DNA from: Lachnospiraceae bacterium
GTDB taxonomy: Bacteria; Bacillota; Clostridia; Lachnospirales; Lachnospiraceae
DNA: 64,000 nt
Assembly: GCA_009774175.1 (NCBI GenBank)
Contig: VSNG01000002.1
Coordinates: forward strand, 11,095-75,094
Direction: 5' to 3'
Shown here: piece by piece, positions 13,208-43,863 of the stretch
How positions within the stretch are numbered: the first letter of the stretch is position 1
How the letters are laid out: every line of letters starts with the position of its first letter
Made by a program: the position numbers and the translations under genes
Notes under the pieces: model-generated
Told to the model about the DNA's origin: nothing
Databases searched by the model: none
The model's input: the letters and a program-made list of their open reading frames with translations, nothing else

Positions 13208-13229
13208 GTTTTTTCTCCCTCGCCATGAT

Positions 13230-20101: not shown

Positions 20102-22087
20102 TCAATAAAAAACGCCCCGTTTTCCCCTCTGTCCGAAATACAGCCTGTACACTGCGACCTCCTCATTCTCAAAAGCCACTTCACCCACATCCTTCGGGCA
20201 TGTAAACAGCGGCGTATAAAACTTTCTCTGCACGATATAGTCAAGCCCCAGCTCCGCGTAGTACCTTACCGCTTCCTGATTTCCGGCAAAACAGCTTATT
20301 CCGCGCAGATAATCGGTATCGTAATCGTGAAAGAGATATGCATATCGTTCCGAAAAAACGCCGGTAGGATCATGCAGGTTTCCCCAGACCCTGTCGGATA
20401 ACAGAATCACATCCTCCTCCGTATTGTCCCTGATCCACGTGTAGGCCTCGCACTGCGCCTGGGATACATAAAGCAGACATTCGCCCTTATGCCTGTCAAC
20501 GGCATTCGGCGTACCGATATTTTTCACTCCGGCCGCCAGATTAGAGCCAAAGTAACCCAGATAGTTATTCTGTAGCATAAATACAATCGCGGCAGCACCA
20601 ATCGCCCCTGCCGCCGCATAGCCGGCCTTCCCCCGCAGATACTTCTCAAATACGATTTCCGCAAGACACCCGGTAAGTACTGCGGCAAACGGAAATGTGA
20701 TAAAACAGAAATACATATGCGAGTTCCCGTTAAAGTTAATCACATAGCTTCCCATGGTTCCGGCCAGGATAATAACGGCAAACAACAGATGCTCCTTTTT
20801 CAGCTTTTTTAAAAACAGCAGATAAAGACAATAAATCCCTGCCGGAATAAAAGTAAAACAATTGGATCTCGCCGTTTTCACACCGTATCTGACAATCCAG
20901 GCAGCGCATGAACGCAGGGACTGCATCGCCTGCGATCCGCCGTTAAGCTGAATATCCGGAAGATGCAGCGTCAGATTATAATTTTTCGCAATCGGCCAAA
21001 GGTATACTCCCACTGCTCCAAATACAACCAGCATAAGGCCCGTGGCAATATACGCTGTCCTCCTGCTGCTTCGTGAGAGAAACAAATAAAGATACGCCGC
21101 TGCAAAACCGCAGAAAACAACCGCGCCTGCCGCGCTCTTGGTTCCCGTACAGCATAGCAGACAACATAGGCTCCAGACTAGATTGCGCACATCCGTTTTT
21201 TCGTTTTCCAGCTGTACCAGAAGCAGCGCCACCACGATAAGGCCCAGAGCCTGCGCAATATCGTAGGACATCGGCACCAGGTACATATGCCATATATAGG
21301 TCATAGGCACCACTTCCTCGTACCCGGTGGAAAACAGCAAAAGCAACAGGGCCAGAACCTGCGCCGCCTTATTTTTCATCATTCTGCTCACAAGCGCGTA
21401 AGAAGACAGCCCCGTCAATAAAGCGCTCTCAATAAAAGAATAGCACACCGCCACCTTAACCGCCTGAATCCCCGTCACAACGGAAACCGCCGTCTGCTGC
21501 AGCGCCCCCAGGTAATGGTAACGGTATCCCGGCGCAAGCGTGCGAAATTCCTTTGGCGGAAAATGCTTTTTCAGGGCAACCATATCTCCCGTCCAATACA
21601 GAAAATCCGTCTCGTAATTATTGGAGCCTGCTGTATAAGGTATCTTCCATCTCATGGAAAAAACTACAAGCATAACAAAAAAGACTGCTAAAACCGTGCC
21701 GATCCATATGATGTTTCCTTCGCCATCCGAAGATTTTGTCGCCGTTTCCTGCACGAAGTCCCTTTTCTGATTCCGCTTAAACGCCAATGCTGCGCACGCC
21801 AGAACCGGCAGCAGGAAAAAGGCGCCCCGCACATACCTGATTCCCACAGTCAGCATCAGCGCTGTATATAGCAGAATCGTCAGCATATAGCCGGACGCGT
21901 AGATCAGCGTCAGTTTTTCTATCCTTCTCAGATTTTTTATCGGCACAAGCGCCATAACGGCGGCGCCGGGCAAAATCATGCAAAAAAACTGAAAGCAGAT
22001 ATATACCAGAAGCTCTCCCGGAGCTATCTGATTACATACCCCTGTAACAATCGTCATAAAGGCAATCAGACCGATTAAAGCAATCAT
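20102..22087 (-). CDS. large polytopic membrane protein, GT-C-like (ArnT/PMT-like or polymerase-like) with soluble C-terminal domain
   Basis: 661 aa with more than 12 hydrophobic segments. C-terminal soluble domain of about 130 aa ending VAVYRLYFGQ. AGGAG before ATG 22087. Confidence 0.5.
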   Translation of the reverse strand: MIALIGLIAFMTIVTGVCNQIAPGELLVYICFQFFCMILPGAAVMALVPIKNLRRIEKLTLIYASGYMLTILLYTALMLTVGIRYVRGAFFLLPVLACAALAFKRNQKRDFVQETATKSSDGEGNIIWIGTVLAVFFVMLVVFSMRWKIPYTAGSNNYETDFLYWTGDMVALKKHFPPKEFRTLAPGYRYHYLGALQQTAVSVVTGIQAVKVAVCYSFIESALLTGLSSYALVSRMMKNKAAQVLALLLLLFSTGYEEVVPMTYIWHMYLVPMSYDIAQALGLIVVALLLVQLENEKTDVRNLVWSLCCLLCCTGTKSAAGAVVFCGFAAAYLYLFLSRSSRRTAYIATGLMLVVFGAVGVYLWPIAKNYNLTLHLPDIQLNGGSQAMQSLRSCAAWIVRYGVKTARSNCFTFIPAGIYCLYLLFLKKLKKEHLLFAVIILAGTMGSYVINFNGNSHMYFCFITFPFAAVLTGCLAEIVFEKYLRGKAGYAAAGAIGAAAIVFMLQNNYLGYFGSNLAAGVKNIGTPNAVDRHKGECLLYVSQAQCEAYTWIRDNTEEDVILLSDRVWGNLHDPTGVFSERYAYLFHDYDTDYLRGISCFAGNQEAVRYYAELGLDYIVQRKFYTPLFTCPKDVGEVAFENEEVAVYRLYFGQRGKRGVFY

Positions 22088-22098: not shown

Positions 22099-23091
22099 TT
22101 AAACATTATATATATCGCTCTTATAGCATCCCATATTCTCTCTGATCCAGGCAATCGTCTCCCTGATTCCCTCCTCGAACGTATATCGGGGTTCCCATGC
22201 GGTCAGTCTTTTGATCTTCTCGTTTGCGCCCAGCAGACGGTTTACCTCGCTCTTTTCCGGGCGAAGTCTCTGCTCATCGCAGACGATCTTCGCACTCGGA
22301 TTGATCTGCCTGATGATCTCATTTGCCAAATCCCCGATGGAAATCTCCTGCTGGGTCGCAATATTGATTTCCTCTCCGATGGTCTTGTCCGATTCCGCAA
22401 TCGACACAAACCCTGCCGCCGTGTCCTTCACATAATTAAAGTCTCTGGTGGGCGAAAGCGATCCCAGCTTAATCTCTTTTTGTCCCGCCAGAAGCTGGGT
22501 AATAATCGTGGGAATCACGGCCCTTGCCGACTGTCTCGGGCCGTATGTATTAAACGGCCTGACAATCGAAACCGGTAAATTAAAGCTTCTGTAAAAGCTC
22601 TCCGCCAGCCGATCCGCTCCTATTTTAGTGGCGGAATAGGGGGACTGACCCTGATAAGGATGTTTTTCGTCAATAGGCACATACTGCGCCGTGCCGTACA
22701 CCTCCGAGGTGGACGTGACCATAATCCGCTCTGTTCCCAGATCACGCGCGGCCTGCAGCACGTTTAAGGTGCCCTTGATATTCGTATCCACATAGGAATC
22801 GGGCGAATGGTAGCTGAACGGAATAGCGATTAATGCCGCCAGATGGAATACGCCGTCCACGCCCTTCATCGCTTCCCGCACCCCGTTGGGATCACGGATA
22901 TCCCCCGAAAACACTTCAATTTCCCTCATTTTATCCTGCGGCAGCGTATCCAGCCACCCCCAGGTATTAAAGGAGTTATAATAAGCAAACGCCTTTACCT
23001 GATATCCCTTTTCTACCAGCAGTTCGGTCAGATGACTTCCGATAAAGCCGTCCGCTCCTGTCACCAACACTTTTTTCATAATGCTCCTCAT
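22099..23091 (-). CDS. legB: NAD-dependent sugar-nucleotide 4,6-dehydratase, LegB-like (SDR family)
   Basis: VLVTGADGFIGSHL Rossmann motif, STSEVYG, YSATK (YxxxK). The FAYYNSFNTWGWLD segment is as recalled for LegB-type enzymes. ATGA overlap with neuC at 23088..23091. Sits in a NeuC/NeuB/NeuD context. Confidence 0.7.
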   Translation of the reverse strand: MRSIMKKVLVTGADGFIGSHLTELLVEKGYQVKAFAYYNSFNTWGWLDTLPQDKMREIEVFSGDIRDPNGVREAMKGVDGVFHLAALIAIPFSYHSPDSYVDTNIKGTLNVLQAARDLGTERIMVTSTSEVYGTAQYVPIDEKHPYQGQSPYSATKIGADRLAESFYRSFNLPVSIVRPFNTYGPRQSARAVIPTIITQLLAGQKEIKLGSLSPTRDFNYVKDTAAGFVSIAESDKTIGEEINIATQQEISIGDLANEIIRQINPSAKIVCDEQRLRPEKSEVNRLLGANEKIKRLTAWEPRYTFEEGIRETIAWIRENMGCYKSDIYNV

Positions 23092-24269
23092 TCCTGCACT
23101 GTTTTTCCATGCAAATCGTAAAAAGTTTTCTTTAAATAAATCCGGTCATGCAGCAGAAAGTCTTTACAGACAGCGGCTATTTTCCTGCTTGTCCCCTCCG
23201 CTTCATAGGGATTATGCACCGGCTCCTTTTTCAGTCGTTCCTTCATGGCCGCCGCCTCTTCCATGGCTTTCCTGATATCTCCACGCTCCGCCTCACAGTG
23301 TATCACACTTTCGGCCGCCGTTCTACCCCGCTGTCTGTCTCCGATATTTACCGTCGGCACCTGAAAAGACGGCGCCTCGATGATTCCGCTGGAAGAATTT
23401 CCGATCACCATCCTGCTGTATTTCACCGCGCTCAGGTATCTGCGCATCCCCAGCGAAGCAACGGCATACACGTTACCGCGGACCGCCGCATATTGGTCTA
23501 TCATCCGGTTAATGATGTGGCCGCCCGCATCGGCGTTTGCCTTGGTGATAATATATTTCATAGTAAAATCATCCAACGCATCCAAAAGTGCCTGAAACTG
23601 GCTCTCCACACTTCCATCTTCCAAAGTAACAGGGTGAAAGGTCACAACCGCATAGGGGTCCCCCAATGGAAAATCCAGCGACGCTTCCAGTTCTGTCTTT
23701 GTCATCAACGGCACTTTTCTGATATTTTCCACACCAAGCGCCCCCACCGGAAAAACCCTGTCAGGAGATTCTCCCAACTGGATAATGCGGTTTGCATATT
23801 CCTGCGTGGAAGGAAAGTGCAGATAGCTGAGCTTTGTAATAGAATGGCGGATAGCGTCATCCACCGCCCCTTCCGTAATCTCGCCGCCGTGAAGATGCGC
23901 GATAGGTATGCGGGCATTCATTGCCGCCAGACACACCGCAAGCGTCTCATACCGATCCCCCAGCACAACAAGCATGTCCGCCCGGTTCTCCTCAAAATAT
24001 CCGCCAAACGCTTCCAAAGCTTCAGCCATCGTCCTGCTGACCGCCGCCGCTGTATCTCCTTTTTCCAAAATCGGTATTTTTACCGCAATGGGAAATCCAT
24101 CGTCAAGAATCTCCCGATAGGTATTTCCGAACTCCTCCGACAGGTGGGCGCCAGTCACCAACAGGGAAATTTCCAAGTCTCTATCCGCATAAAATCTCTC
24201 AATCAGCGGCCTTAAGATGCCATATTCGGCTCTTGTCGCCGTCAATACAGCGATCCTTTTCTTTGCCAT
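23088..24269 (-). CDS. neuC: UDP/GDP-sugar 2-epimerase (hydrolysing), NeuC/LegG type
   Basis: RIAVLTATRAEYGILRPL, DRYETLAVCLAA, IAHLHGGE. The track start at 24275 is TTG. ATG at 24269 has GAGG 7 nt upstream. Confidence 0.85.
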   Translation of the reverse strand: MAKKRIAVLTATRAEYGILRPLIERFYADRDLEISLLVTGAHLSEEFGNTYREILDDGFPIAVKIPILEKGDTAAAVSRTMAEALEAFGGYFEENRADMLVVLGDRYETLAVCLAAMNARIPIAHLHGGEITEGAVDDAIRHSITKLSYLHFPSTQEYANRIIQLGESPDRVFPVGALGVENIRKVPLMTKTELEASLDFPLGDPYAVVTFHPVTLEDGSVESQFQALLDALDDFTMKYIITKANADAGGHIINRMIDQYAAVRGNVYAVASLGMRRYLSAVKYSRMVIGNSSSGIIEAPSFQVPTVNIGDRQRGRTAAESVIHCEAERGDIRKAMEEAAAMKERLKKEPVHNPYEAEGTSRKIAAVCKDFLLHDRIYLKKTFYDLHGKTVQE

Positions 24270-24271
24270 TT

Positions 24272-25270
24272 TCAAACCTCTATCAATTCGTCCTGCGCAA
24301 AATCCCTGACCGCCGTTTTTCCAACAACGTCATTCCAACGCATAGGGGAAATGCCGTTTCCCGGTCTCTTAGTCGTAAGATTGTCCTCCGTAAGCCGCTC
24401 CCCCGCCCTGATGGGACATTTAGCCACGATGCTTTTGCGCGCAATTTCCGTATTTTTCTTCTCCGATTCGGAGGGTCTCTTGACGCCATCTCCCAGAGCC
24501 GATTCTATGTTTCTGACCGCTTCTACCATGGCCCGGAGTTCTGCGGGCTCCAGGCTGGCTTTGTGGTCCGGCCCTTCCATCGTTCTATCAAGCGTAAAAT
24601 GTTTCTCGATCACCACGGCGCCCAAAGTCGCCGCCGCAATCGGAATCTCAATGCCCTGCGTGTGATCCGAATATCCCACGGGCACGCCAAGCTCCCTTTC
24701 AAGGGTCGCCATCGCCCGCAGATTTACATCCCGATAGGGCGTCGGATACTCTGTATTACAATGAAGCACGGTAATGTCGCCGCTGCCATATTCCCGCAGC
24801 ACCGCCACGGCCTCTCTTATCTCTACAAGGGTACACATGCCAGACGAAATGACAACCCGTTTCCCACACCTTCCCACTTCCCGCAAATAGGGGTAGTTGG
24901 TCACCTCCCCGGAGGGTACTTTTATGATTTCCAGGCCGCACTGTATCAAATAATGCAGGCTGTCAACATCAAAGGGTGTAGACAAGAACATAATGTTCTT
25001 TTCTCTGCACCGGGCAATCAGCTGTTCATGCATATCCGGCGATAATTCCAGTTTTTTAAGCATGTCATACTGGGACTCCTCCTGTCCCGTCGTCTCCATC
25101 TGATAAGCCGCCTTTTTTGCGTCCCTGCTCACCAGCGCCTCCGCTTGAAACGTCTGGAACTTCACGGCGTCCGCGCCCGCTTTTGCCGCCGCATCCACTA
25201 ACTTTTTTGCGATTTCGATATCTCCGTTATGGTTGACGCCCGCTTCGGCGATGATAAATATTCTGTTCAT
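24272..25270 (-). CDS. neuB: N-acylneuraminate / N,N-diacetyllegionaminate synthase (NeuB/LegI family)
   Basis: IIAEAGVNHNGDIEIAKKLVDAAAKAGADAVKFQTF. C-terminal SAF-like KSIVAKCPIRAGERLTEDNLTTKRPGNGISP. ATG at 25270 forms an ATGA overlap with the upstream stop. Confidence 0.9.
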   Translation of the reverse strand: MNRIFIIAEAGVNHNGDIEIAKKLVDAAAKAGADAVKFQTFQAEALVSRDAKKAAYQMETTGQEESQYDMLKKLELSPDMHEQLIARCREKNIMFLSTPFDVDSLHYLIQCGLEIIKVPSGEVTNYPYLREVGRCGKRVVISSGMCTLVEIREAVAVLREYGSGDITVLHCNTEYPTPYRDVNLRAMATLERELGVPVGYSDHTQGIEIPIAAATLGAVVIEKHFTLDRTMEGPDHKASLEPAELRAMVEAVRNIESALGDGVKRPSESEKKNTEIARKSIVAKCPIRAGERLTEDNLTTKRPGNGISPMRWNDVVGKTAVRDFAQDELIEV

Positions 25271-25902
25271 AACTGCTTTACCTTTTCCCCGCTCCATGCG
25301 ATGCTGTGCGCTTTCACATCACGGCGGATGGTGGTTCCCGCTCCGATCGTGCTTTTATCCCCGATGGTTGTGCACTGGACAACCGTTGCATTGGCCCCCA
25401 CCAGCACGGATCTGCCCACCTTTACCTCCCCGCACAAAACCGTTCCCACCGATATATGGGAAAAATCTCCTACCTGACAGTCATGCTCCACAATCGCGCC
25501 CGTGTTGATAATACACATATCCCCTATCACTGCGTTTACATTGATAACGGCTCTCTTGCCGATAAAACTGCCCTCTCCGATTCGTGCGCCGGCAGAAAGA
25601 ATCGCGGAAGGGTCGCAGACTATCGGAAGCCGGAAACCGATCTGCTTTAAGGTACCAAAGAGCTTTTCCCTGACATCCGACTTCCCCATATAGCCGATTC
25701 CCACAGCGGCGTTTCGGATGCCGCTTTGAAAAAGCCGCTCCAGATCCTTATCGCCGCCAAGCACCGGATAGCGGCTTCCCTCTTTTGCGCATACCGCGTC
25801 ATTGACCACATAACCCGCTATCTCATATTCCTGTTGTCTCTCCAGAACGTCCGCAAGACTTTCCGCGTGTCCGCCCATGCCGAGAATAATTATCTTTTCC
25901 AT
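25267..25902 (-). CDS. NeuD/PglD/LegH-family sugar N-acetyltransferase (left-handed beta-helix)
   Basis: IIILGMGGHAESLADVL N-terminal Rossmann-like part. Hexapeptide repeats IGEGSFIGKRAVINVNAVIGDMCIINTGAIVEHDCQVGDFSHISVG. Confidence 0.85.
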   Translation of the reverse strand: MEKIIILGMGGHAESLADVLERQQEYEIAGYVVNDAVCAKEGSRYPVLGGDKDLERLFQSGIRNAAVGIGYMGKSDVREKLFGTLKQIGFRLPIVCDPSAILSAGARIGEGSFIGKRAVINVNAVIGDMCIINTGAIVEHDCQVGDFSHISVGTVLCGEVKVGRSVLVGANATVVQCTTIGDKSTIGAGTTIRRDVKAHSIAWSGEKVKQL

Positions 25903-27690
25903 TTATTTATCCCTAATCATCAGCTCTTCATACTCTTCCTTTGCAAGAAAGGGGTACATGTCCTGCAAGGCAGGCGTAAGCATTTTACCGTTTTCGTCCA
26001 ACCGTGACATCACCTTTGGCGTCACCGGGTCGTCAAGCCGCTGTTCAATCTCAAGCAGACATCTCGTCTCACAAGTTGTCAGCCATCTGACCGCTTCCTC
26101 CACTTCTTCATTAGAAGCGCACTTACGGTATGCATAGCCGAAGGTTTCCGCCACCTTCCGAAATTCCGGGAAGCTTACGCCGGTATCGGGAGTACATCCG
26201 ATATAGGCCCCTTCAAAGAAATTTTTGCTTGTCTGCCTGATGGCTCCGTAACCGTCATTGGAAAATACGACCACATTCACCGGAAGATCGTTCTGCACAA
26301 TGGTCTGCAATTCCTGCAAATTCATCATAATGCTGCCGTCCCCGGTAATACAGTACACCTTTCTCTTCGCCGCCACAGCCGCGCCGATGGCCGCAGGAAT
26401 GTCATATCCCATGGAGCCGCAGGTATAGTTCGTCATAACCCGCTGGCCGGCATACTGCACGCCGATCTGGAGCTTGGCCGTATTAGCCGTATTATTTCCC
26501 AGCGCCAGAATACTGTCCCTTTCCTCATACTGTCGAAATATCTTCCAGAAATAATAGGAATTGACCCGCTCCTTTGGCTCGATATCCTCTGCGCCTTCAT
26601 AGGGCGTAAATCTTTCCTTCAATCTGTCGCAGTAGGCAAGCCATTCTTCCGGCGCCTGAACCCGGCAATCCTCTTCCAGCATTTTTCCAATAAACGCGCC
26701 CACGTCGGCATGAACAAACTTTTCGATGCAAAGCCCCGGCTTCCTGCTTTCCTCCGCGTCCGCATCCACCATCACGATCCGCGCCCCCGGCGCAAATCCT
26801 TCCAGATTAAATCCTGTCTGCCGAAATCCCAGACTGTTCCCCATGGCCAGAATCACGTCCGCGTTCTGTAAAATAAAATTCCCGGTTCTCGGCCCCACGT
26901 TCCCGGAATTGCCGTAATAGAGCGGGTGCTCTGCATACAGATTGTCCGCAACCCAGGCGCCGCCGATCACGGGAATCCCCATCTTATTAATGAACTGCTC
27001 AAACGCGTTCCTGCAATGACTGCTGATAATGCCTGAACCCGCCAGAATACACGGTCTTTTCGCACAGCGAAGCATCCCAAGCACATCCTGTATCTGCGCC
27101 TGATCCGCCTGCGGCACATCGCTGATAAATGCTTCCTCTGGATACAGATCCGCCTCTTCCACTCTGGCGTTCTGGATATCCTGCGGAATATCCAGCCACA
27201 CGGGCCCTCTTCTGCCATCCATGGCAATATGAATGGCTTTTATAAGCTCCCGCCTCACCGCCAGCGGATCGGTCAGCATCACGGCATATTTCGTCATATT
27301 TTTCACTGTGGGAATAATCTCGAACTCCTGAATGCCCCGATACCGCAGCTTAAGTCCCGATTTGGGAACGGAAATCTCATATCTGACCTGGCCGGACAAA
27401 ACAACCATGGGCAGGCTGTCCTGCCACGCTCCCATTACGCCCGTCAGGGTATTGGTCGCCCCCGGCCCGGAGGTAACGCAGACCGCCGCCGGCCTGCCGC
27501 TGTATCTGGCGTAAGCCTCCGCCGCCATGGCGCATGCCTGCTCGTGATGGTTAAAATATTTGTGCATCCCTTCACACACAAGCAGCGCATTATCCAGGTG
27601 CATGGCGCCGCCGCCCACCACGGCAAAGCAGTCTGTAACGCCGTATTCGATTAACGTGTCCATAACAATGTCCGCTACTCTTTTTATCAT
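25903..27690 (-). CDS. thiamine-diphosphate-dependent enzyme, acetolactate-synthase large-subunit-like
   Basis: VGGGAMHLDNAL, GPGATNTLTGV. ThDP motif ITGDGSIMMNLQELQT...VVFSNDGYGAI. 595 aa. Confidence 0.85.
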   Translation of the reverse strand: MIKRVADIVMDTLIEYGVTDCFAVVGGGAMHLDNALLVCEGMHKYFNHHEQACAMAAEAYARYSGRPAAVCVTSGPGATNTLTGVMGAWQDSLPMVVLSGQVRYEISVPKSGLKLRYRGIQEFEIIPTVKNMTKYAVMLTDPLAVRRELIKAIHIAMDGRRGPVWLDIPQDIQNARVEEADLYPEEAFISDVPQADQAQIQDVLGMLRCAKRPCILAGSGIISSHCRNAFEQFINKMGIPVIGGAWVADNLYAEHPLYYGNSGNVGPRTGNFILQNADVILAMGNSLGFRQTGFNLEGFAPGARIVMVDADAEESRKPGLCIEKFVHADVGAFIGKMLEEDCRVQAPEEWLAYCDRLKERFTPYEGAEDIEPKERVNSYYFWKIFRQYEERDSILALGNNTANTAKLQIGVQYAGQRVMTNYTCGSMGYDIPAAIGAAVAAKRKVYCITGDGSIMMNLQELQTIVQNDLPVNVVVFSNDGYGAIRQTSKNFFEGAYIGCTPDTGVSFPEFRKVAETFGYAYRKCASNEEVEEAVRWLTTCETRCLLEIEQRLDDPVTPKVMSRLDENGKMLTPALQDMYPFLAKEEYEELMIRDK

Positions 27691-27765
27691 CTCTTCATCC
27701 CGATTCCGAAACCACTGCTCCTGCCAGCGTATTTCAAAATATCCCTTCGTGCAAAAAATGTCCTT

Positions 27766-28806
27766 TTATACCCGCAGCTTATTTTTCATCCGATCCAATT
27801 CTTCCATCTGTCCCATATCCATATAGGCGGACTCTTCAATGATGTAAGCGCCGATTTTTCTGCCCTCAGCCTTGCACCTTTCGATAATCTCCGGGAAGGA
27901 AATCGCCTCATTCTCAGGCATGGCGTCAATCAGCTCCTGCCGCACCATATACATGCCGGTATTAATCAGATAATCGTTCTCCGGCTTTTCCGTCAGCGCC
28001 TCACAATTTCCCGATTCATCCAGCGAAAGAACGCCGTAAGGCACTACATGCTTGTATTTTGCGGCCACAATCGTAATATAGTTGTTATTTTTTTTATGGT
28101 GATTATAAATTTCGCTGTAATCCGCGTCAATGATAATGTCGCAGTTTACGAGAAAAAAATCTTCCGTTATCCTGTTTTTCAAAAGGTAAAGGCCCCCGCC
28201 GGTTCCCAGATAGGTATCCTCTTCCACATACTCAATCTCATACGGCTTCTCTAACGCCTCGAAATAGGATTGAATCATCTTTTTCTTATGATTGACAATC
28301 ATATAGAACTGTTTACAGCCATAATCAAGAAAATTGTTGATAATCCGTTCCGAAATGGGTATCTCCCCTATGGGAATCAGCGCTTTTGGCAGAATCTTCG
28401 TATAGGGAAACAGTCTTGTTCCCTTACCCCCCGCCATCATCACCACCGGGCAGTTTAAATGATAGTCCTTCCTTACCCTGCGGCCGTTTTTAAACACCAC
28501 CTCTATAACTTCGCCGTTGTAGTTTACAATCGGTATCGAAGGCACGTCCGTGGCTCTAAAGAGCTCGTCCACCTTGTTCCTGTCATAGCTCACAAGAAAC
28601 TCCGGCTGATAGTTCGCTATATACTTAATGGGGAGGGCGGTATCGCCATCCCCAAGGGCATATCTTCTCACATCGCCGTCTGAAACAGAGGCAGACAGCT
28701 TACCGTTATCCACCACATATACCACTTTACAGCGCACCCGCTCCAGCTGTTCCACAGCCTCTTTAATGATTGCGCCCTCCTCTATCAATAAGTCCGTAAT
28801 CTGCAT
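27766..28806 (-). CDS. CBS-domain sugar-phosphate nucleotidyltransferase (PtmE-like)
   Basis: N-terminal CBS-like region. MMAGGKGTRLFPYTKILPKALIPIG (GxGTRL motif). GGGAGGA before ATG 28806. Confidence 0.8.
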   Translation of the reverse strand: MQITDLLIEEGAIIKEAVEQLERVRCKVVYVVDNGKLSASVSDGDVRRYALGDGDTALPIKYIANYQPEFLVSYDRNKVDELFRATDVPSIPIVNYNGEVIEVVFKNGRRVRKDYHLNCPVVMMAGGKGTRLFPYTKILPKALIPIGEIPISERIINNFLDYGCKQFYMIVNHKKKMIQSYFEALEKPYEIEYVEEDTYLGTGGGLYLLKNRITEDFFLVNCDIIIDADYSEIYNHHKKNNNYITIVAAKYKHVVPYGVLSLDESGNCEALTEKPENDYLINTGMYMVRQELIDAMPENEAISFPEIIERCKAEGRKIGAYIIEESAYMDMGQMEELDRMKNKLRV

Positions 28807-28838
28807 AATTCCTCCCTGTCAAAGCAAGTTTTACGGTC

Positions 28839-29726
28839 TTAGCCGTAAATCAGAGAATAAAGGTCTATGCTGTCAATGTGCTCCCTGTACCAGTCGTATA
28901 ACAGCTTCACCGCCGCGCGCATATCGGTCAGCTCCCATTCGGGCAGCTCCGCCCGTATCCTGTCATTGTTGGCGGTGTACTCATTTGCCCACCCGTCGCT
29001 GCATACAAAAATATCTCCCGGCTTGTCAGCTATATCATTGACTATCTGCGCCAGCTCATAAAGACTTACCCGAACGCCGCTGACCGCATTATAGACATGG
29101 TATTTCGGATGCTCCAGATGCAGAAACAGTTCCACCAGCCGGCAGAAATCGTCAATCCACAGATAATCGAAATAACAGTTTTTCCGAAGGGACAGGGGCA
29201 GCCCCTTTAAGGATTTACAGCAAAGGTTTGAAATATATTTAGTTTTCCAGTATTCATATTTTCCGAAAATTCCAAACAGACGCAGATTATAGATATTCTC
29301 GCTTTTCTCAATCATCTGATTTACGGTATACTTCATCAGTCCGTACTGATCCGTGGGAATCAGGTGGTTCTCAATGTCCTCCTCCGTAACGGACATAATC
29401 GGAAAACGCTTGTCATACTCCGCGCCCGACCCGGCATAAATCATTCTGCCGTATAAATCGGCATGTCTGTAAAAATTCAAAAACATTCTGAGGTTGTAAT
29501 CCAAAATCCTGCTGCCGTCCTTGCTCGGATCCGTTCCGTTCACATAGACGGCAAAATTCAGCACCACATCATAGCGGGTCTTTTGCAGACAGGCCGCGAC
29601 CTGTTCTTCGTCTACGCCGTTTAATTCTCTACTGGAAGGCGCATACACGTCATAGCCCTTCTGCAGCAGATATTCTTTGACATTTCTTCCCACAAACCCG
29701 GAACCGCCGGTCATCAAAATCTTCAT
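28839..29726 (-). CDS. NAD(P)-dependent epimerase/reductase (SDR family)
   Basis: ILMTGGSGFVGRNV Rossmann motif. About 295 aa. ATG 29726 is preferred over 29738 on RBS context (weak). Confidence 0.7.
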   Translation of the reverse strand: MKILMTGGSGFVGRNVKEYLLQKGYDVYAPSSRELNGVDEEQVAACLQKTRYDVVLNFAVYVNGTDPSKDGSRILDYNLRMFLNFYRHADLYGRMIYAGSGAEYDKRFPIMSVTEEDIENHLIPTDQYGLMKYTVNQMIEKSENIYNLRLFGIFGKYEYWKTKYISNLCCKSLKGLPLSLRKNCYFDYLWIDDFCRLVELFLHLEHPKYHVYNAVSGVRVSLYELAQIVNDIADKPGDIFVCSDGWANEYTANNDRIRAELPEWELTDMRAAVKLLYDWYREHIDSIDLYSLIYG

Positions 29727-29779
29727 ACTAATCCCCATTCTTGCTCAGCCTGCGAATTTGGGCGCAAGCACAAATTTGC

Positions 29780-29814
29780 GTGTGAAAAATCTTGCGCATA
29801 TGGATTTTTCACAC
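29780..29814 (-). other. perfect 12-bp stem-loop abutting the stop codon of 29814..30863
   Basis: gtgtgaaaaatc (29780..29791), an 11-nt loop, then gatttttcacac (29803..29814). The arms are exact reverse complements. No U-tract follows on the coding strand. A second, imperfect hairpin follows (gcaaatttg/caaattcgc, one mismatch). Confidence 0.6.
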
Positions 29815-30863
29815 TATCCCCTGTATACTCCTCTGTCCACCATATAATAGTTCTCATACCGCCTGTTGTTTAACAGGCAGGCCAGCACCGAACCGCCGCC
29901 CTGCACCCGGAACAGCGCGTCGCAGGTCGACAGCAGATATGTCTCGATCAAATAATCGACGGCCCGTTCCTCCGTGCTCTGGTGATCCGTCTCAATGTGT
30001 CCGCCTACCCCTTCTTTATAGGGATGCCCTTCCTCGTCAAAATAACGCGGCAGCGTTCTCCCCTCCATATACAGACATTTCTCCCCAAACTCCCGTTTCA
30101 TTCTCTCCGCGTAATATCTGTCGTCAGGAGAAAGGAAAAGATATTCACAGCCAAATTCCCGCATGTACCGATGGGCATACTCGATATATTCGTCAATATT
30201 TAACCCTTTCGGATGATTCACATACATTTCCGTATGCGCCACCTCGCCCCAGTACAGACCGGCGCGCATGCCGATTCCCAGTATTTTACTGCCTCCCGCT
30301 CTGCCAAAGAGGGTTTTTCTTATTTCCTGCGCCCTTTTCAGAATATCGGGCCGAATGCGGATATATTTCGCCATCGCCTCGAAATAGGGCGTATACATCT
30401 CATCCGACAGTTCCCTCATTTGTTTCCAGTCCACACTGCCGTAGGGCTGTCCCTTATCCGGCGCCAGAATCACACGGCTGCTCTGATATACGTCCTCCAG
30501 AGAATAGCCGGGCGCCGGCTGCTCAAAATAATACTCCCAAGCGTTTTCCTTTCCTTTGTGCTCCTCATTCTGAACGCCCTTAATATAACAGCGTTTCAAA
30601 TCAACCACGGGTATCCAGCCCCGCTCGGTTGCATACTTGATATTGTTGAGCACAATGCTGACCGTCGTTGCCAGTCCCCAGCTCTGGGGCCACTGCGAAT
30701 AAATCACATAAAACGTCTTATCCTTATTCAGCTCTCCGTAACGGTGCACCCGCATGGCGCGTTTATTTTTATATACAATCTTTATCCGCTGAAACCATTC
30801 GTTATACGCCCGCCTTACGTTTTCCGAAACAAGCTTTCTATATATCCCTAATAAAAAATTCAT
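29814..30863 (-). CDS. hypothetical protein, no confident family (possibly fucosyltransferase-superfamily-like GT)
   Basis: 349-aa ORF with GAAGAGG before ATG 30863. No transmembrane segment. The C-terminal segment YLLSTCDALFRVQGGGSVLACLLNN is loosely reminiscent of the GT11/GT23-type terminal motif. Confidence 0.35.
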   Translation of the reverse strand: MNFLLGIYRKLVSENVRRAYNEWFQRIKIVYKNKRAMRVHRYGELNKDKTFYVIYSQWPQSWGLATTVSIVLNNIKYATERGWIPVVDLKRCYIKGVQNEEHKGKENAWEYYFEQPAPGYSLEDVYQSSRVILAPDKGQPYGSVDWKQMRELSDEMYTPYFEAMAKYIRIRPDILKRAQEIRKTLFGRAGGSKILGIGMRAGLYWGEVAHTEMYVNHPKGLNIDEYIEYAHRYMREFGCEYLFLSPDDRYYAERMKREFGEKCLYMEGRTLPRYFDEEGHPYKEGVGGHIETDHQSTEERAVDYLIETYLLSTCDALFRVQGGGSVLACLLNNRRYENYYMVDRGVYRG

Positions 30864-30963
30864 CTAATACCTCTTCGCCTATCCCTATTTCTTTCCAGTA
30901 TAACACAAATGTCTGCATAATTCTTCCACTTTATCTACAGATACCCATGCGGCCTCATTATCT

Positions 30964-31668
30964 CTAATCGGAAATCATCATATACGCCTGCAAGTATTCT
31001 TTGATCGTTTCTTTGGAATTAAACATCATCACATCAATAATTGACAAATTCGGTTGAAATTCATTGTCAAACTGTTGGTATACAATATTCTGCGTTTTTA
31101 CGAAATTTAACCGCAGGCCATGTTCCCGGAATGCCTCATAGGAATACAATTCCCGGCCGCCTATCGCATTATAGTACTCTGTCGCGCCCAACAGCTTGCA
31201 TATCGCCAGAACCTTATCCTGGCCTCTCAGGGTATTGTCCTTTTTCAGGTCGGAAGACATAATCAACCCGGTCTTTATATCCAAATAGTTTCCTATCACC
31301 TCAAACGAATGCTTGATATACTTTGCAATATTATCTTCTTCACACCACAGGATCTCTTCTAACATCGGATTCACAATATCATAATAGGGCGCTTTTCTAT
31401 AAGCGCCCTCTATGCTCCTTAAATTCTTGCAGATGACGGCCTCATTGTGATCCACCCGCACTTCATTAATCAGGACATTGGATGAGGAACCCAACATTGG
31501 CACATTAAAATACTTAGGCGCTCCATTCACCAAAATTCTGTTTCTGTTAATCCATCCGCCCTTGATAAAGTTCACATCGTCATAGATCACATACTGATCC
31601 ACAAAATTCATCAACTGCCAATAGCCTATATAAGGCATGAAATAGGGCTGCATAATACCCAGTCTCAC
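30964..31668 (-). CDS. WbqC family protein
   Basis: IMQPYFMPYIGYWQL N-terminus is typical of WbqC-like proteins. GTG start at 31668 is preceded by AGGAGGAG. Confidence 0.8.
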   Translation of the reverse strand: MRLGIMQPYFMPYIGYWQLMNFVDQYVIYDDVNFIKGGWINRNRILVNGAPKYFNVPMLGSSSNVLINEVRVDHNEAVICKNLRSIEGAYRKAPYYDIVNPMLEEILWCEEDNIAKYIKHSFEVIGNYLDIKTGLIMSSDLKKDNTLRGQDKVLAICKLLGATEYYNAIGGRELYSYEAFREHGLRLNFVKTQNIVYQQFDNEFQPNLSIIDVMMFNSKETIKEYLQAYMMISD

Positions 31669-31684
31669 TCGACTCCTCCTGCTT

Positions 31685-32794
31685 CTAGCGTTTACACCTA
31701 ATCACTATACTGCATATCCGTTCCACATCTCTTAAGTCCAGATCCGCATAAAGAGGCAACGTCAACACCCTTTGGCTGATCAGCTTCGCCATCGGCGTAT
31801 TCTCCACGTTATATTTCCCATGAAAGCAGTCAAACGTATTCGTCAGCGGATAAAAATACTTCCGCGCGCCGATATTCTCACGTTCGAGGGCTTCCTGCAC
31901 CTCGTTCCGATCTGCACCAAATTTTTTTTCATCTATGATTATCGGAAAATACGCGTAATTCGTATACACGCCTTCCTGCAGGCTGTTGAGCCGCAATCCC
32001 TTTACGCCCTCCAGCCGTTCCCGGTAATATGAAACTACCTTCTCCCGTCTCTCCCGGTTTTCCTTCAAATGTTTCAGGTTGCAGAGGCCCATAGCCGCGC
32101 AAAATTCATTCATCTTCGCATTGGCTCCCACACCCTCAACCGTCTCCTCATCACGGATTCCAAAATTCTTCAACTGATATAGCGTTCTGCCAAGAGCCGG
32201 ATCCCGGTAACAGCAGGCTCCTCCTTCAATGGTGTTGAACACTTTCGTGGCATGAAAACTAAAACAGGAGGCGTCGCCAAACTGTCCCACCGCCCTATCC
32301 TTATAGCGGACACCAAAAGCATGGGCCGCGTCGTAGAGCACCTTTAAATGATATTTATGCGCAATCCTCTCTATTTCCTCCACATCGCATATATTCCCAT
32401 AGACATGCACCGGCAGGATCGCCGAGGTTCTGTCCGTGATTAATCCCTCAATCTTAGACGCATCAATCGTAAAATCCCTTTCATTGATGTCGCAAAATAC
32501 CGGTTCCAAACCGTTTCTGATAATGGCGTGGGTGGTCGACGCAAAAGTAAAGGGCGTGGTGATCACTTCCCCCTCAAGTTTCATCGCCTGCACGGTAAGC
32601 TCCAAAGCCATATGGCCGTTGGTAAACAGCTCCACTGAAGGAACCTCCAAATATTCCTGCAGTTTCTCCTGCAGCTCAACATGCTTGCTTCCCATATTGG
32701 TCAACCAGTGCGTCTGCCAGAGCTCCCTGATCTCTTCCACGTATTCGTCCAACTCCGGCATCGACGATCTTGTCACATTAATTCTATCCGACAT
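31685..32794 (-). CDS. DegT/DnrJ/EryC1/StrS family PLP-dependent sugar aminotransferase
   Basis: NGHMALEL, DAAHAFG, SFHATKVFNTIEGG (Schiff-base Lys). ATG 32794 is preferred; an alternative GTG at 32812 would form a GTGA overlap. Confidence 0.85.
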   Translation of the reverse strand: MSDRINVTRSSMPELDEYVEEIRELWQTHWLTNMGSKHVELQEKLQEYLEVPSVELFTNGHMALELTVQAMKLEGEVITTPFTFASTTHAIIRNGLEPVFCDINERDFTIDASKIEGLITDRTSAILPVHVYGNICDVEEIERIAHKYHLKVLYDAAHAFGVRYKDRAVGQFGDASCFSFHATKVFNTIEGGACCYRDPALGRTLYQLKNFGIRDEETVEGVGANAKMNEFCAAMGLCNLKHLKENRERREKVVSYYRERLEGVKGLRLNSLQEGVYTNYAYFPIIIDEKKFGADRNEVQEALERENIGARKYFYPLTNTFDCFHGKYNVENTPMAKLISQRVLTLPLYADLDLRDVERICSIVIRCKR

Positions 32795-37345: not shown

Positions 37346-38899
37346 TTACCGCACCGCCTCCGTCAACTCCTCATAGCTGTCAAACAAAAACAGCAGATAA
37401 TCCTCCGACTGATAATCCGCTTTCTTCCGGGACAGAGCCCCCTGAAAGGAGCACACTCCATACTCTTCCTCCGTAAGCAGCACAAAAACCCTGCCCTCCG
37501 GCCGTGTGATCTGATGAGCCGCATTCTGCAGCCATGGAAGCACATCGTCCACGTCACGCAAGGTGGACAGATCATCCTCCCACACCCAAACATCGATCGC
37601 CCCGTCGGACAGCTCCCGCAACACATTGCCATTCCAGAACGTGGCGTATCCCTCACAAGCTCCTTCTTCCTGCACAAGATACGTCACAATAGGACGAAGC
37701 TGCGCCGTCTTGTCCATACTGCCGTAACGCGCATATCGAAAAATACCGCTAAGCAGAATGCCGCCACCCAAAAAAACAAGCAGTCCCGTTTTCACATATC
37801 GATTCCATGTAATCTCAGACAAGTTCAAAATCATAAGCGGGATGGCAAACACCATGGCCGCCATGTTATATCTGTCCGAGTACAGCATATCGGTAAAAGT
37901 ATACATACAGAAAAAAATGCCGTACACCCCTGTAAAGTACACTGCCAAAAGCCAGATTGGCTCTGACTCTCCCCACTTCTTAACAACCGTCCGAGCCACG
38001 CACACAACCATCACCAAGGCAAGCACGCAGCTGAACGCACTAGCTATCGGCGTCGGTTTCCCGTCTCCATAGGAATAGCCGAAAGCGCGCAACGTACCGA
38101 AGAAAAGATCCCGAATTCCCTGAACGGACACCCGGAATTTCATGCCACCGACCCAAGTCTCGTACCAATAATGTCCCGCCAACACGCAGGAGTTAACCAA
38201 ATATCCCGTGCAGGAAGCGACAAGTCCCACTGCCGAACAGGCAAGATATCCCGAAGGCTTCCTCTGTATTAACGCCATCAAAACCGTTGCGGCAAACAGC
38301 GGTAGATAAAGCACCACCAGATGTCTGATGCCGCCAAGACCGGTCATAAAAGCAAGCACGACCGTGAATGCCAACACAGCTTTTTTCATCCTCGTCGAGG
38401 CGCGTGCATAATGAAACACCATTCCCACCGCAAAGAAGGAAATACTGATAAAGGACGCATATAAAAGCGCCAACAGCACATATTCAAAATAACCGTCGGA
38501 AACCGGCAAGAGCAGAAATATGGCGGAAACCGCATAGATCTTTTCCTGTCCCATCTGCCGCATCATATAGTAGTAACTTACAAGCATCAGCAGATAGGAA
38601 ACGACACAGGCTCCTGTCCTGACCATTGTCCAGTCCCGGAAAAAATGAAAAAAGAATGAGTAAAGCAGCTGTATATTTAATACGCGAAGCTCCGTGGAAT
38701 AAAACCAATTTCTGGAGATCAGCGCGTGTTCCCCGTTTAAAATCTCCGCCAGAAGCATTTCACTGGAAATATCGGAGTCCGTCAGCATATCCCCGCGAAG
38801 CTGCATAAAAACGGAGAGGTAGACAAACAATCCAACCAGGCATATCCACGGCAGAGCCTTGATCCATCTATTTAACAGCTTATCCGTTTCCCGCTTCAT
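37346..38899 (-). CDS. polytopic membrane protein, GT-C-like, with soluble C-terminal domain
   Basis: 517 aa with more than 10 hydrophobic segments. Acidic first loop LRGDMLTDSDISSE. Soluble tail of about 110 aa. Confidence 0.45.
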   Translation of the reverse strand: MKRETDKLLNRWIKALPWICLVGLFVYLSVFMQLRGDMLTDSDISSEMLLAEILNGEHALISRNWFYSTELRVLNIQLLYSFFFHFFRDWTMVRTGACVVSYLLMLVSYYYMMRQMGQEKIYAVSAIFLLLPVSDGYFEYVLLALLYASFISISFFAVGMVFHYARASTRMKKAVLAFTVVLAFMTGLGGIRHLVVLYLPLFAATVLMALIQRKPSGYLACSAVGLVASCTGYLVNSCVLAGHYWYETWVGGMKFRVSVQGIRDLFFGTLRAFGYSYGDGKPTPIASAFSCVLALVMVVCVARTVVKKWGESEPIWLLAVYFTGVYGIFFCMYTFTDMLYSDRYNMAAMVFAIPLMILNLSEITWNRYVKTGLLVFLGGGILLSGIFRYARYGSMDKTAQLRPIVTYLVQEEGACEGYATFWNGNVLRELSDGAIDVWVWEDDLSTLRDVDDVLPWLQNAAHQITRPEGRVFVLLTEEEYGVCSFQGALSRKKADYQSEDYLLFLFDSYEELTEAVR

Positions 38900-39487: not shown

Positions 39488-39551
39488 TACTTCCTCCGCT
39501 TCTTTACGCCCCGCGGCAGTCGGACCGCGATACCGGCGCGCGCAAAACGCT

Positions 39552-41123: not shown

Positions 41124-41181
41124 AAATGTCAGCTCCAATCCGATTTTATGGCCTGCGTTTAGTATAACACTGAACCCGAAC

Positions 41182-43852: not shown

Positions 43853-43863
43853 TCTCTGTCCGG

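Follow-up and report, generated by a model that had tools for sequence, protein, structure and literature searches.

A YerE-like thiamine diphosphate enzyme within a legionaminic acid-type gene module of gut Lachnospiraceae: a possible route to a carbon-branched nonulosonic acid

A stretch of 64,000 nt from a Lachnospiraceae bacterium (contig VSNG01000002.1, assembly GCA_009774175.1; hereafter the window, within which all positions are given) carries a gene for a thiamine diphosphate (ThDP)-dependent enzyme embedded among genes of the legionaminic acid (Leg) type, and the seven genes at 22099-29738 form one conserved module that encodes, in this order, a 299-residue short-chain dehydrogenase/reductase (SDR299), a CBS-domain nucleotidyltransferase (CBS-NTP-transferase), the ThDP enzyme, NeuD, NeuB, NeuC and LegB. 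What is new is that a legionaminic core is combined with a ThDP enzyme of a presumably carbon-branching type, in clusters from which the activating enzyme is systematically, and the aminotransferase often, missing. Judging from sequence comparisons, we consider it rather probable that two things hold jointly, namely that the ThDP enzyme branches C4 of the 4-keto product of LegB, the donor probably being pyruvate, and that SDR299 carries out a subsequent reduction. That gut Lachnospiraceae thereby make a branched nonulosonic acid with an 11-carbon skeleton that has a 7-C-(1-hydroxyethyl) substituent but lacks the 7-amino group, and display it on flagella or elsewhere on the cell surface, is a more tentative proposal, which we regard as plausible rather than probable. 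The module consists of the following genes (ORF, open reading frame; NDP, nucleoside diphosphate; GlcNAc, N-acetylglucosamine; HexNAc, N-acetylhexosamine):

22099..23091, minus strand: LegB-family NAD-dependent NDP-GlcNAc 4,6-dehydratase (TIGR04180, 526.1 bits, cutoff 475)
23088..24269 (ORF to 24275), minus strand: NeuC-type hydrolysing NDP-HexNAc 2-epimerase, 393 aa (TIGR03568, 456 bits, cutoff 236)
24272..25270 (ORF to 25297), minus strand: NeuB-type nonulosonate synthase, 332 aa from the start in the ATGA overlap (TIGR03569, 505 bits, cutoff 400; PF03102, SAF)
25267..25902, minus strand: NeuD/PglD-family hexapeptide acyltransferase (TIGR03570, 197.6 bits, cutoff 160.8)
25903..27690, minus strand: YerE/JanthE-like ThDP-dependent carboligase, 595 aa (PF02776, PF00205, PF02775)
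27766..28806, minus strand: CBS-domain sugar-1-phosphate nucleotidyltransferase of PtmE-like architecture (PF00483, weak CBS match)
28839..29738, minus strand: SDR299, 299 aa, an extended SDR of RmlD/Epimerase type (PF01370, PF04321)

An earlier sequence-only reading had placed ten minus-strand genes in this region, and their positions, order and domains are borne out by the ORF, Pfam and NCBIfam analyses. It had also pictured a legionaminic cassette interrupted by the ThDP and SDR genes; this picture has to be abandoned, because both of these genes and that of the NTP-transferase are integral to the module. How tightly are the genes coupled? From ThDP through LegB, start and stop codons abut or overlap: TAAATG with zero gap at ThDP/NeuD, an ATGA overlap at NeuD/NeuB and TGAAAATG with a gap of 2 nt at NeuB/NeuC, all as previously read, whereas the second ATGA overlap, at NeuC/LegB, exists only if LegB starts at 23091. 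An alternative ATG 12 nt downstream (23079) has a better ribosome-binding site, GAGGAG, and is the one chosen by public gene calls (326 aa). A scan of 19-36 kb for promoters and terminators found nothing that would convincingly split the module. As to the class of the individual enzymes, the models TIGR03570, TIGR03568 and TIGR03569, whose cutoffs the NeuD, NeuC and NeuB of the window exceed, do not separate Leg-type from Neu-type enzymes, and the best NCBIfam models for the CBS-NTP-transferase are sugar-1-phosphate nucleotidylyl- and guanylyltransferases, all of them below cutoff.

About 170 homologous loci (labelled L001, L002, etc., with up to 10 kb of DNA fetched on each side) were annotated by comparison with reference proteins that had themselves been verified by Pfam or NCBIfam. 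The order SDR-NTP-ThDP-NeuD-NeuB-NeuC-LegB, or a minor variant of it, recurs in L001-L006, L084-L086, L132-L134, L297, L358 and L366, where the ThDP enzyme is at least 74% identical to that of the window, and its recurrence in independent genomes and metagenomes means that the arrangement is not due to chance. The surroundings vary, with fliD/fliS beside L132 and with L133 and L134 lying beside a conserved island core of the window type. The module abounds in gut metagenomes of humans and animals and is shared by many gut Clostridia; a metagenome search with the ThDP enzyme gave at least 8,000 candidates, and the 120 matches listed are all at least 77% identical. Several accessory genes accompany it in particular relatives. 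A formyltransferase occupies the NeuD slot directly after the ThDP gene in L084, L085 and L134, and in others (the second group of loci being L003, L006, L020, L026, L084 and L085) NeuC is followed by a further formyltransferase and a PIG-L deacetylase, from which N-formylated forms of the product are to be expected. Between one and three radical-SAM/SPASM genes adjoin the ThDP/SDR pair, or stand just past LegB, in L007, L021, L132-L134, L084, L003, L086 and L024, and may modify the branch further. Some loci carry a second, divergent ThDP paralogue of 31-46% identity (L002, 16899-20903; L086, 3839-7189), adjoining either a NeuB/NeuC pair of its own or a NeuB+cupin fusion with NUDIX and radical-SAM genes.

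The identity of the ThDP enzyme is central to the proposal. Pfam recognizes all three domains of the fold (PYR, middle and PP), the catalytic Glu lies in an HHEQ motif (residues 48-51), and the ThDP-binding motif is a canonical GDG-X25-N (residues 450-478), as against CDG in JanthE. Its closest solved structures are JanthE of Janthinobacterium sp. HH01 (8RPH; 353 bits and 34% identity over nearly the full length) and PpYerE (5AHK; 231 bits, 31% identity), structures of acetohydroxyacid synthases (AHAS) scoring at most 201 bits. A neighbour-joining tree of 93 sequences unites the window enzyme with all 80 genomic homologues in a single clade, from which JanthE, PpYerE, E. coli IlvI and Gcl are increasingly distant; JanthE and PpYerE were rebuilt from PDB alignments for these comparisons, and authentic YpYerE, YerF, ErwE and MMAR_2332 were not among the sequences, the placement of these four being indirect. 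The best NCBIfam model by score is TIGR00118, the large subunit of acetolactate synthase (ALS), with 309.7 bits against a cutoff of 538.35, and the enzyme falls still further below the cutoffs of the remaining ALS models. No ACT or ALS_ss small-subunit domain was found in any scanned ORF of the window, and the neighbours of the ThDP gene are those for the CBS-NTP-transferase and NeuD; the E. coli ilvI-ilvH locus served as the contrast. Taken together, these comparisons support a YerE-like carboligase and not a housekeeping acetolactate synthase. The sequence-only reading had named a grouping with housekeeping acetolactate synthases and an adjacent small subunit as outcomes that would refute it, and neither was observed: the enzyme groups with JanthE and PpYerE, apart from IlvI.

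What chemistry would be expected of such an enzyme? JanthE and PpYerE are ketone-accepting carboligases that form tertiary alcohols, the YerE and JanthE enzymes are the only ThDP enzymes of the decarboxylase superfamily known to add acyl-anion equivalents to unactivated ketones, and in nature these enzymes attach carbon branches to 4-keto deoxysugars that occur in surface glycans (PMC12247030, PMC12188165), although the physiological substrates of JanthE are unknown (PMC12188165). YerE itself takes activated acetaldehyde from pyruvate and places it on the keto group at C4 of CDP-3,6-dideoxy-4-keto-glucose, and ErwE (erwiniose), MMAR_2332 (caryophyllose) and MygE (gastriose), of the same enzyme class, likewise branch 4-keto deoxysugars of surface glycans (PMC12247030). 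The resemblance to the YerE/YerF pair that makes yersiniose A in Yersinia pseudotuberculosis is considerable, inasmuch as both systems place a three-domain, AHAS-like ThDP enzyme and an NAD(P)H reductase in a glycan cluster with an NDP-sugar 4,6-dehydratase. The window differs, however, in having no RfbF, RfbG or RfbH, in possessing a dehydratase of the LegB family, and in setting the pair among NeuD, NeuB and NeuC; its acceptor, unlike that of yersiniose synthesis, would be a 2-acetamido-2,6-dideoxy-4-hexulose, probably linked to guanosine diphosphate (GDP).

These expectations find some support in the company that the ThDP gene keeps. A homologue of SDR299 lies inside the locus, mostly adjoining the ThDP gene, in about 20 of the 26 ThDP loci L001-L026, including the yersiniose-type L023 and the heptose-type L007, so that the partnership of the two genes suggested by the sequence-only reading holds up well. 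We propose that SDR299, whose PDB matches are weak and of RmlD type, is by analogy a YerF-like reductase of the new branch carbonyl. Homologues of the ThDP enzyme with 48-73% identity, accompanied by the same type of SDR, occur in loci for CDP-3,6-dideoxyhexoses (yersiniose type) or 6-deoxyheptoses. In L023 (ThDP 48%, SDR 39% identical to the window proteins) the order is RfbF-SDR299-ThDP-RfbG-RfbH, with all three Rfb proteins above their NCBIfam cutoffs and no aldolase, which by its gene content is a textbook yersiniose arrangement matching the YerE/YerF logic; RfbF, RfbG and RfbH together yield CDP-3,6-dideoxy-4-keto-glucose, the acceptor of YerE. L007, whose ThDP enzyme is 73% identical and lies inside the window clade of the tree, encodes at 3831-9085 a flagellin, Maf (PF01973), GmhA, GmhB, an HldE-like protein, a split transketolase, a 4,6-dehydratase, SDR299 and the ThDP enzyme, again with no aldolase. 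Neither NeuB nor any other aldolase was found in the fetched DNA of L007, L021 (70%) or L023, and the donor used in the sub-clade of the window is therefore probably small. The ThDP/SDR299 pair thus appears to behave as a YerE/YerF-type cassette that joins a small donor to whichever NDP-4-keto-6-deoxy sugar its cluster makes, and such cassettes may often serve flagellin glycosylation (flagellin/Maf in L007, fliD/fliS in L132).

More distant members of the family are organized differently. Homologues of 40-43% identity stand mostly in RfbF-RfbG-RfbH loci, as do the relatives of JanthE, which are mostly not in Leg-type loci, and the former often adjoin an HMGL-cupin or NeuB-cupin aldolase and an SDR of Epim306 type. 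Such loci seem to follow the ErwE/caryophyllose logic, in which the aldolases could supply a long hydroxy-2-oxo-acid donor. Whereas ErwE, MMAR_2332 and MygE use long, hydroxy-functionalized donors, the window sub-clade has SDR299 and, in its non-Leg relatives, no dedicated aldolase; the HMGL-cupin gene that the window does contain differs from the ErwE-type aldolases in being a conserved core member with or without a ThDP gene nearby.

Which sugar, then, is branched in the window? Pfam scans of the larger ORFs of the 64 kb revealed no 4,6-dehydratase other than LegB; RfbF, RfbG and RfbH homologues are absent from the window (by Pfam, and by BLAST with the L023 proteins, which pass their cutoffs) and from the fetched DNA of every window-clade locus. 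In L024, moreover, a LegB of 86% identity stands with ThDP, SDR, a PseG-like hydrolase and a NeuB-like protein, and NeuC, NeuD and LegC are missing. These three observations together make the LegB product the likeliest acceptor, which fits the earlier suggestion that the ThDP enzyme acts on a 4-keto intermediate. L025, comprising SDR, ThDP, a CTP_transf_3+PseG-like fusion, a NeuB-like protein and a family 2 glycosyltransferase (GT2), would by its gene content represent the complete logic of branching followed by nonulosonate (NulO) synthesis.

The most telling evidence comes from comparing Leg clusters with and without the ThDP gene. A metagenome search anchored on LegB returned 80 loci (LegB 85-100% identical to that of the window), and loci entered the counts if their LegB was at least 60% and their NeuB at least 45% identical. 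NeuA was present in all 40 ThDP-less loci and LegC in 38 of them, against 1/21 and 8/21, respectively, among the ThDP-containing loci (Fisher p = 3e-15 for NeuA and 2e-6 for LegC, values that overstate the evidence because the loci are not phylogenetically independent); with near-duplicates removed, NeuA is found in 2/30 ThDP-containing versus 19/19 ThDP-less loci. The pattern spans several distinct gene orders and bacterial families. The common ThDP-less order is NeuB-NeuC-NeuA-NTP-LegB-LegC-NeuD, and LegB is 85-91% identical in both kinds of cluster. In trees, the LegB, NeuB and NeuC lineages are common to both cluster types and interleaved, whereas NeuD and the CBS-NTP-transferase of the ThDP-containing loci each form a clade of their own, apart from the ThDP-less clusters. 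The sole NeuA-bearing locus among the 21 is L004, where an unrelated Neu cassette, inverted and equipped with a NeuA of its own, takes the place of NeuD-NeuB-NeuC and SDR-NTP-ThDP-LegB is retained. L375, by contrast, has a canonical cluster with NeuA and LegC plus a separate module of RfbFGH, a distant ThDP enzyme and Epim306; where two systems truly stand side by side, neither NeuA nor LegC is lost. The loss of both from ThDP-containing loci, together with the separate NeuD and NTP-transferase lineages, points to a four-for-four exchange around a common LegB/NeuC/NeuB core, such that {NTP', ThDP, SDR299, NeuD'} seem to replace {PtmE-type NTP, LegC, LegH, NeuA}. The module would then be a variant of the legionaminic acid pathway and not that pathway with insertions.

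The known Leg pathways help to define this difference. The window shares with the CMP-Leg pathway of Campylobacter jejuni (CMP, cytidine monophosphate), which consists of PtmE, LegB, LegC, LegH, LegG, LegI and LegF (PMC13317340) and whose LegB uses GDP-GlcNAc (PMC7439481), the LegB, a NeuD-family protein, the 2-epimerase, the NeuB-type synthase and a CBS+NTP-transferase of PtmE-like architecture. Its module, unlike that pathway, has no LegC-family aminotransferase and no LegF, the ThDP enzyme and the SDR being extra; ThDP-less gut clusters with 85-90% identical LegB retain the full canonical Leg set. The sps Leg pathway of Bacillus subtilis likewise serves a Firmicute surface structure, the spore crust (PMC7439481), and the window for its part contains two CotH kinases and many glycosyltransferases. 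The sps route differs in its intermediates, linked to uridine diphosphate and made with SpsM, and in its SpsC (aminotransferase) and SpsF; a term search of that paper (PMC7439481) found neither 'thiamine' nor 'acetolactate'. Full-text searches of the library at hand, too, brought up no publication that associates ThDP enzymes with the synthesis of nonulosonates or with their gene clusters; a paper on Shewanella oneidensis flagellin proved to have no bearing on the question, and a literature search on WbqC was equally unproductive. Shewanellose may serve as a chemical precedent for such branching of the 4-keto intermediate: this 4-C-branched 2-acetamido-2,6-dideoxyhexose occurs in Shewanella putrefaciens A6 in one polysaccharide with a derivative of 8-epi-legionaminic acid, although its branch is a three-carbon carboxamide unit; we know of no genes assigned to its biosynthesis.

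Based on the above, the pathway that we favour would begin with the NTP-transferase producing an NDP-HexNAc, probably GDP-GlcNAc as in Campylobacter, which LegB would convert to NDP-2-acetamido-2,6-dideoxy-4-hexulose. Instead of transamination by LegC, the ThDP enzyme would decarboxylate a small 2-oxo acid, likeliest pyruvate, and add the resulting acyl-anion equivalent to C4, giving a tertiary alcohol with an acetyl branch, and the carbonyl of this branch would be reduced by SDR299 as YerF does in yersiniose synthesis. In the continuation that we prefer, NeuC would remove the nucleotide and epimerize C2, and NeuB would condense the product with phosphoenolpyruvate to a 7-C-branched, 7-deamino, 9-deoxy nonulosonic acid of about C13H23NO9. 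An acyl group would be attached by NeuD (in some relatives by the formyltransferase), and activation would fall to an enzyme outside the module. That the branched product does continue through NeuC and NeuB in this manner is, in our estimate, a leading but by no means secure possibility; it is favoured by the depletion of LegC, by the separate lineages of NeuD and the NTP-transferase, and by the architectures of L024 and L025.

Where could the CMP activation come from? Between 22099 and 32812 there is no CMP-nonulosonate synthetase, LegF or NeuA. The conclusion from Pfam scans that the whole window is devoid of one was overturned by a tblastn match at 43864-44649, a NeuA-like gene 16 kb away with 24% identity (E 9e-8) to the CMP-NeuAc synthetase of N. 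meningitidis; the probe sequence was approximate, with L004 as positive control. This gene is the only candidate CMP-sugar synthetase in the window. However, it belongs to a conserved core block and not to the module: 43 species of Lachnospiraceae have it with 85-98% identity, in every case adjoining genes for an HMGL-cupin aldolase and a HAD phosphatase. The block (38957-50828, minus strand), found in these 43 species with variable DNA downstream, seems to constitute a route, independent of NeuB, to a CMP-activated 3-deoxy-ulosonic acid. Between its DegT451 and Asn-synthase-like genes it also holds a 141-aa ORF, and its named genes are:

49473-50828, minus strand: DegT451
47334-49055, minus strand: Asn-synthase-like amidotransferase
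46000-47301, minus strand: family 4 glycosyltransferase (GT4)
44576-45985, minus strand: soluble protein of 469 aa
43864..44544 (ORF to 44649), minus strand: CTP_transf_3-like cytidylyltransferase, NeuA-like (tblastn; motif IPVKGNSTRLPNKN)
39552-41138, minus strand: HMGL-like + cupin aldolase
38957-39487, minus strand: KdsC-like HAD phosphatase

Inserted between the NeuA-like and HMGL-cupin genes, at 41182-43852 on the minus strand, is a YfhO split into ORFs of 232 aa (the N-terminal part by Pfam) and 630 aa (the remainder) with an 80-nt gap, which may be a disrupted gene; the insertion is missing from most relatives.

The genes flanking the module bear on the question of what becomes of its product. 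Three lie directly upstream and one downstream:

20102..22087, minus strand: polytopic membrane protein with about 11 transmembrane segments and a C-terminal domain (no Pfam match; hydropathy scan)
29814..30863, minus strand: soluble 349-aa glycosyltransferase of GT-B fold, predicted from its modelled structure to be fucosyltransferase-like (GT23/GT65/GT68 type)
30964..31668, minus strand: WbqC-family protein (PF08889, 231 bits)
31685..32794 (ORF to 32812), minus strand: DegT-family sugar C4-aminotransferase, 369 aa, DesI-/perosamine-synthase-like (NCBIfam, PDB)

The 349-aa protein, formerly read as an orphan, has 79 database homologues and, apart from a faint NodZ hit, no Pfam match. Its AlphaFold2 model (pLDDT 93.6) resembles FUT8, NodZ and POFUT1/2 in Foldseek searches of the PDB (probability 1.0, E 6e-8 to 1e-5, TM score 0.41-0.57), and an invariant Arg200 in a GVxxR motif corresponds to the conserved nucleotide-binding Arg; the model identifies it as a glycosyltransferase, the donor of which is probably an NDP-linked (GDP-type) 6-deoxy sugar. 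Its gene is directly upstream of the SDR gene in the window, L004, L133 and L134, and adjoins a distant ThDP gene in L039. WbqC, modelled with a pLDDT of 91, has no meaningful structural neighbour in the PDB by sequence or Foldseek (best E 0.03, TM score 0.29, faintly ThiF/E1-like), and its predicted fold thus seems to have no solved representative. The DegT protein is not of the LegC family: it scores 299 bits on TIGR04427 and 165.4 bits on TIGR04181 (LegC; cutoff 420), below cutoff in both cases, compared with 444-492 bits on TIGR04181 for the true LegC of relatives and 176.3 bits for the second DegT of the window (49473-50828), and its PDB matches are DesI (2po3, 189 bits) and GDP-perosamine synthases (about 157 bits). 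DegT and WbqC occur together in the window, L004, L130 and L134 and are absent from the otherwise collinear L133, and a Wzx cluster of Roseburia inulinivorans has DegT, WbqC and a 4,6-dehydratase with no NulO or ThDP genes, indicating a separate, optional amino-sugar cassette. From the gene content of the window, this cassette could here draw only on the LegB product, and it might substitute for LegC. Finally, the membrane protein directly downstream of LegB, copies of which (77-94% identical) follow LegB in L001 and L297, accompanies the module in its closest relatives only and may be a GT-C-type transferase or polymerase.

Several observations weigh against a branched nonulosonic acid. Eight of the 21 ThDP-containing loci retain LegC, and several loci have alternative DegT genes. 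The NeuB, and especially the NeuC, of ThDP-containing loci without an aminotransferase are sister to those of canonical LegC- and NeuA-containing clusters, suggesting the usual 2,4-diacetamido substrate and an aminotransferase encoded elsewhere; taken together, these points weaken the missing LegC as proof of replacement. NeuD, or the formyltransferase, is without an obvious acceptor in a 7-deamino product, and relatives with two formyltransferases and a PIG-L deacetylase are easier to explain by two amino groups. The acid would still need CMP activation, for which the module has no gene, and a glycosyltransferase of the GDP-sugar type beside the SDR gene, as modelled, would also fit direct transfer of an NDP-sugar. 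The swap seen in L004 points to a unit of four genes that is independent of the nonulosonate genes, and RfbF/G/H beside ThDP and Leg genes in several deeper relatives means that the association with Leg genes could in part be inherited from a two-sugar glycan. As for the enzyme itself, PpYerE (228 bits) and E. coli IlvI (214 bits) are nearly equal in BLASTP against the window enzyme, and its YerE-like assignment thus rests mainly on JanthE and on genomic context.

It is also conceivable that the module serves two products in parallel. The NTP-transferase, LegB, the ThDP enzyme and SDR299 would make an NDP-4-C-(1-hydroxyethyl)-2-acetamido-2,6-dideoxyhexose for transfer by the adjacent fucosyltransferase-like enzyme, while DegT or an aminotransferase encoded elsewhere, with NeuD, NeuC and NeuB, would make an ordinary legionaminic-type acid that the distant NeuA activates. 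L004, with SDR-NTP-ThDP...LegB kept and the Neu genes exchanged, is in keeping with this explanation, as are the recurrent position of the GT-B gene (beside SDR in four loci, beside ThDP in L039), the near relationship of NeuB and NeuC to canonical Leg-cluster enzymes, the presence in the window of both a DesI/perosamine-synthase-like C4 aminotransferase and, 16 kb off, a NeuA-like gene, and the co-occurrence of shewanellose with a legionaminic-type acid in S. putrefaciens A6. Yet an ordinary acid would need both LegC-type amination and CMP activation, and NeuA is missing from 20/21 and LegC from 13/21 ThDP-containing loci, although among ThDP-less clusters whose LegB is near-identical the frequencies are 40/40 and 38/40; L375, where two modules genuinely stand side by side, retains both; the window's NeuA-like gene is part of a core block that 43 species possess, with or without Leg genes nearby; and the separate NeuD and NTP-transferase lineages are left unexplained. 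We therefore regard parallel products as unlikely, albeit as the strongest competitor of the branched acid.

A different use of the NeuB product would dispense with CMP activation altogether. NeuC and NeuB would make a 4-hydroxy-2-oxo acid (a 3-deoxy-2-ulosonic acid), which the ThDP enzyme would decarboxylate in order to add the resulting C8 unit to the LegB 4-keto sugar, and SDR299 would reduce the ketone to yield an NDP-linked, higher-carbon (C14) branched sugar. This would account for the near-total absence of NeuA from ThDP-containing clusters, and it is in keeping with ThDP genes of the wider family commonly standing beside donor-making aldolases (HMGL-cupin or NeuB-cupin in L030, L042, L049 and L069; the second copy in L086), as well as with the preference of ErwE, MMAR_2332 and MygE for hydroxy-functionalized C4-C8 2-oxo acids (PMC12247030). 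The closest non-Leg homologues (L007 and L021) and L023, however, have no aldolase in the fetched DNA; members with long donors pair with an Epim306-like SDR and not with SDR299; L004 and L025 join this type of ThDP enzyme to a NeuA or CTP_transf_3 gene; and nonulosonic acids are mostly cyclic in solution. We would give this scheme little credence in all its parts, up to and including the C14 product.

Equally improbable is that the ThDP enzyme and SDR299 act on CDP-3,6-dideoxy-4-keto-glucose (CDP, cytidine diphosphate) supplied by rfbF/G/H outside the window, their place among Leg genes being a relic. RfbF, RfbG or RfbH does lie beside ThDP/SDR and Leg genes in L009, L011, L013, L016, L018, L020 and L022; RfbH is very common in Lachnospiraceae (>596 matches) and occurs in the variable region of sister species with the same island core, and among the best 80 of these more than 596 relatives the query's own locus was not returned. 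Against this stand the absence of RfbF/G/H from the 64-kb island and from the fetched DNA of window-clade loci and the start-to-stop coupling of ThDP with NeuD in a compact module, and the loss of NeuA and LegC would not be accounted for.

The abutment of the ThDP stop codon and the NeuD start codon, the separate lineage of NeuD in ThDP-containing loci and the many N-acyl variants known for legionaminic and pseudaminic acids could also be taken to mean that the ThDP enzyme, together with SDR299, makes an unusual acyl donor (acetoin- or acetolactate-derived, or a hydroxyacyl group) that NeuD transfers to N7 of legionaminic acid. This suggestion, raised in the sequence-only reading, has gained no support and now appears very improbable: the ThDP/SDR pair also occurs in L023, L021 and L007, which have no NeuD or amino-sugar pathway; ThDP and SDR are retained where a formyltransferase replaces NeuD (L084, L085, L134); a CoA-ligase or carrier protein is absent; and the known chemistry of the family is ketone carboligation (PMC12247030). 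Could NeuD-NeuB-NeuC simply make Neu5Ac, with no need of an aminotransferase? This is weakened by the interleaving of NeuB and NeuC with those of LegC-containing clusters, and by the combinations of formyltransferase and PIG-L, which imply extra amino groups. That the enzyme is an ordinary acetohydroxyacid synthase large subunit standing by chance in a glycan island, for which TIGR00118 as the best-scoring model would speak, is practically ruled out by its far-below-cutoff ALS scores (309.7 versus 538 bits), the tree, its greater proximity to JanthE than to any AHAS, the lack of an adjacent ACT-type small subunit, and the fact that each of the approximately 170 homologous loci examined is a sugar cluster.

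What would a branched nonulosonic acid signify? Where bacteria carry sialic, legionaminic and pseudaminic acids on their surface and flagella, these sugars influence recognition by the immune system, the binding of phages and lectins, and the motility of the cell. To our knowledge, all known nonulosonic acids have a linear nine-carbon backbone and are activated by CMP-synthetases, and a class of carbon-branched sialic-acid-like sugars has never been described. If the proposal is true, dominant gut commensals would bear a hitherto unseen kind of sugar, and we consider it possible, if somewhat short of probable, that a new class, of branched sialic-acid-like or higher-carbon sugars, is at hand. 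The parts themselves are known (a YerE-like carboligase, a YerF-like reductase, LegB, NeuC and NeuB); it is their combination that is new, and the systematic loss of NeuA and LegC has, as far as we have found, not been noted before. The YerE/JanthE family, whose members are in demand as biocatalysts for making chiral tertiary alcohols, would in addition gain a class of physiological substrates, the 2-acetamido 4-keto sugars.

The wider setting is that of a single-strand glycan island, in which nearly all ORFs lie on the minus strand and the GC skew stays near -0.2 over the whole length. Among the products of the island are more than 15 glycosyltransferases, two fused ABC exporters, YfhO, an MBOAT protein, a pair of CotH kinases and several polytopic membrane proteins that match no Pfam family. 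The CotH-kinase paralogues, of 629 and 647 aa, stand in tandem at the upstream end of the island (57917-61773) and hint at a glycan associated with the spore or with a surface layer. Four proteins of 497-683 aa with 9-11 predicted transmembrane segments and no Pfam match (6714-8207, 13230-15281, 20102-22087 and 37346-38899), one of them the protein downstream of LegB, may be GT-C-type transferases or polymerases, and a 375-aa ORF lies at 12260-13387 on the minus strand. Identical or near-identical copies occur in human-gut assemblies and in Lachnospiraceae metagenome-assembled genomes. Five contigs binned as 'uncultured Bacteroides sp.' (L002, L102, L111, L121 and L219) hold island genes of the Lachnospiraceae type with 77-98% identity, for which mis-binning is the likeliest explanation and horizontal transfer a possible one.

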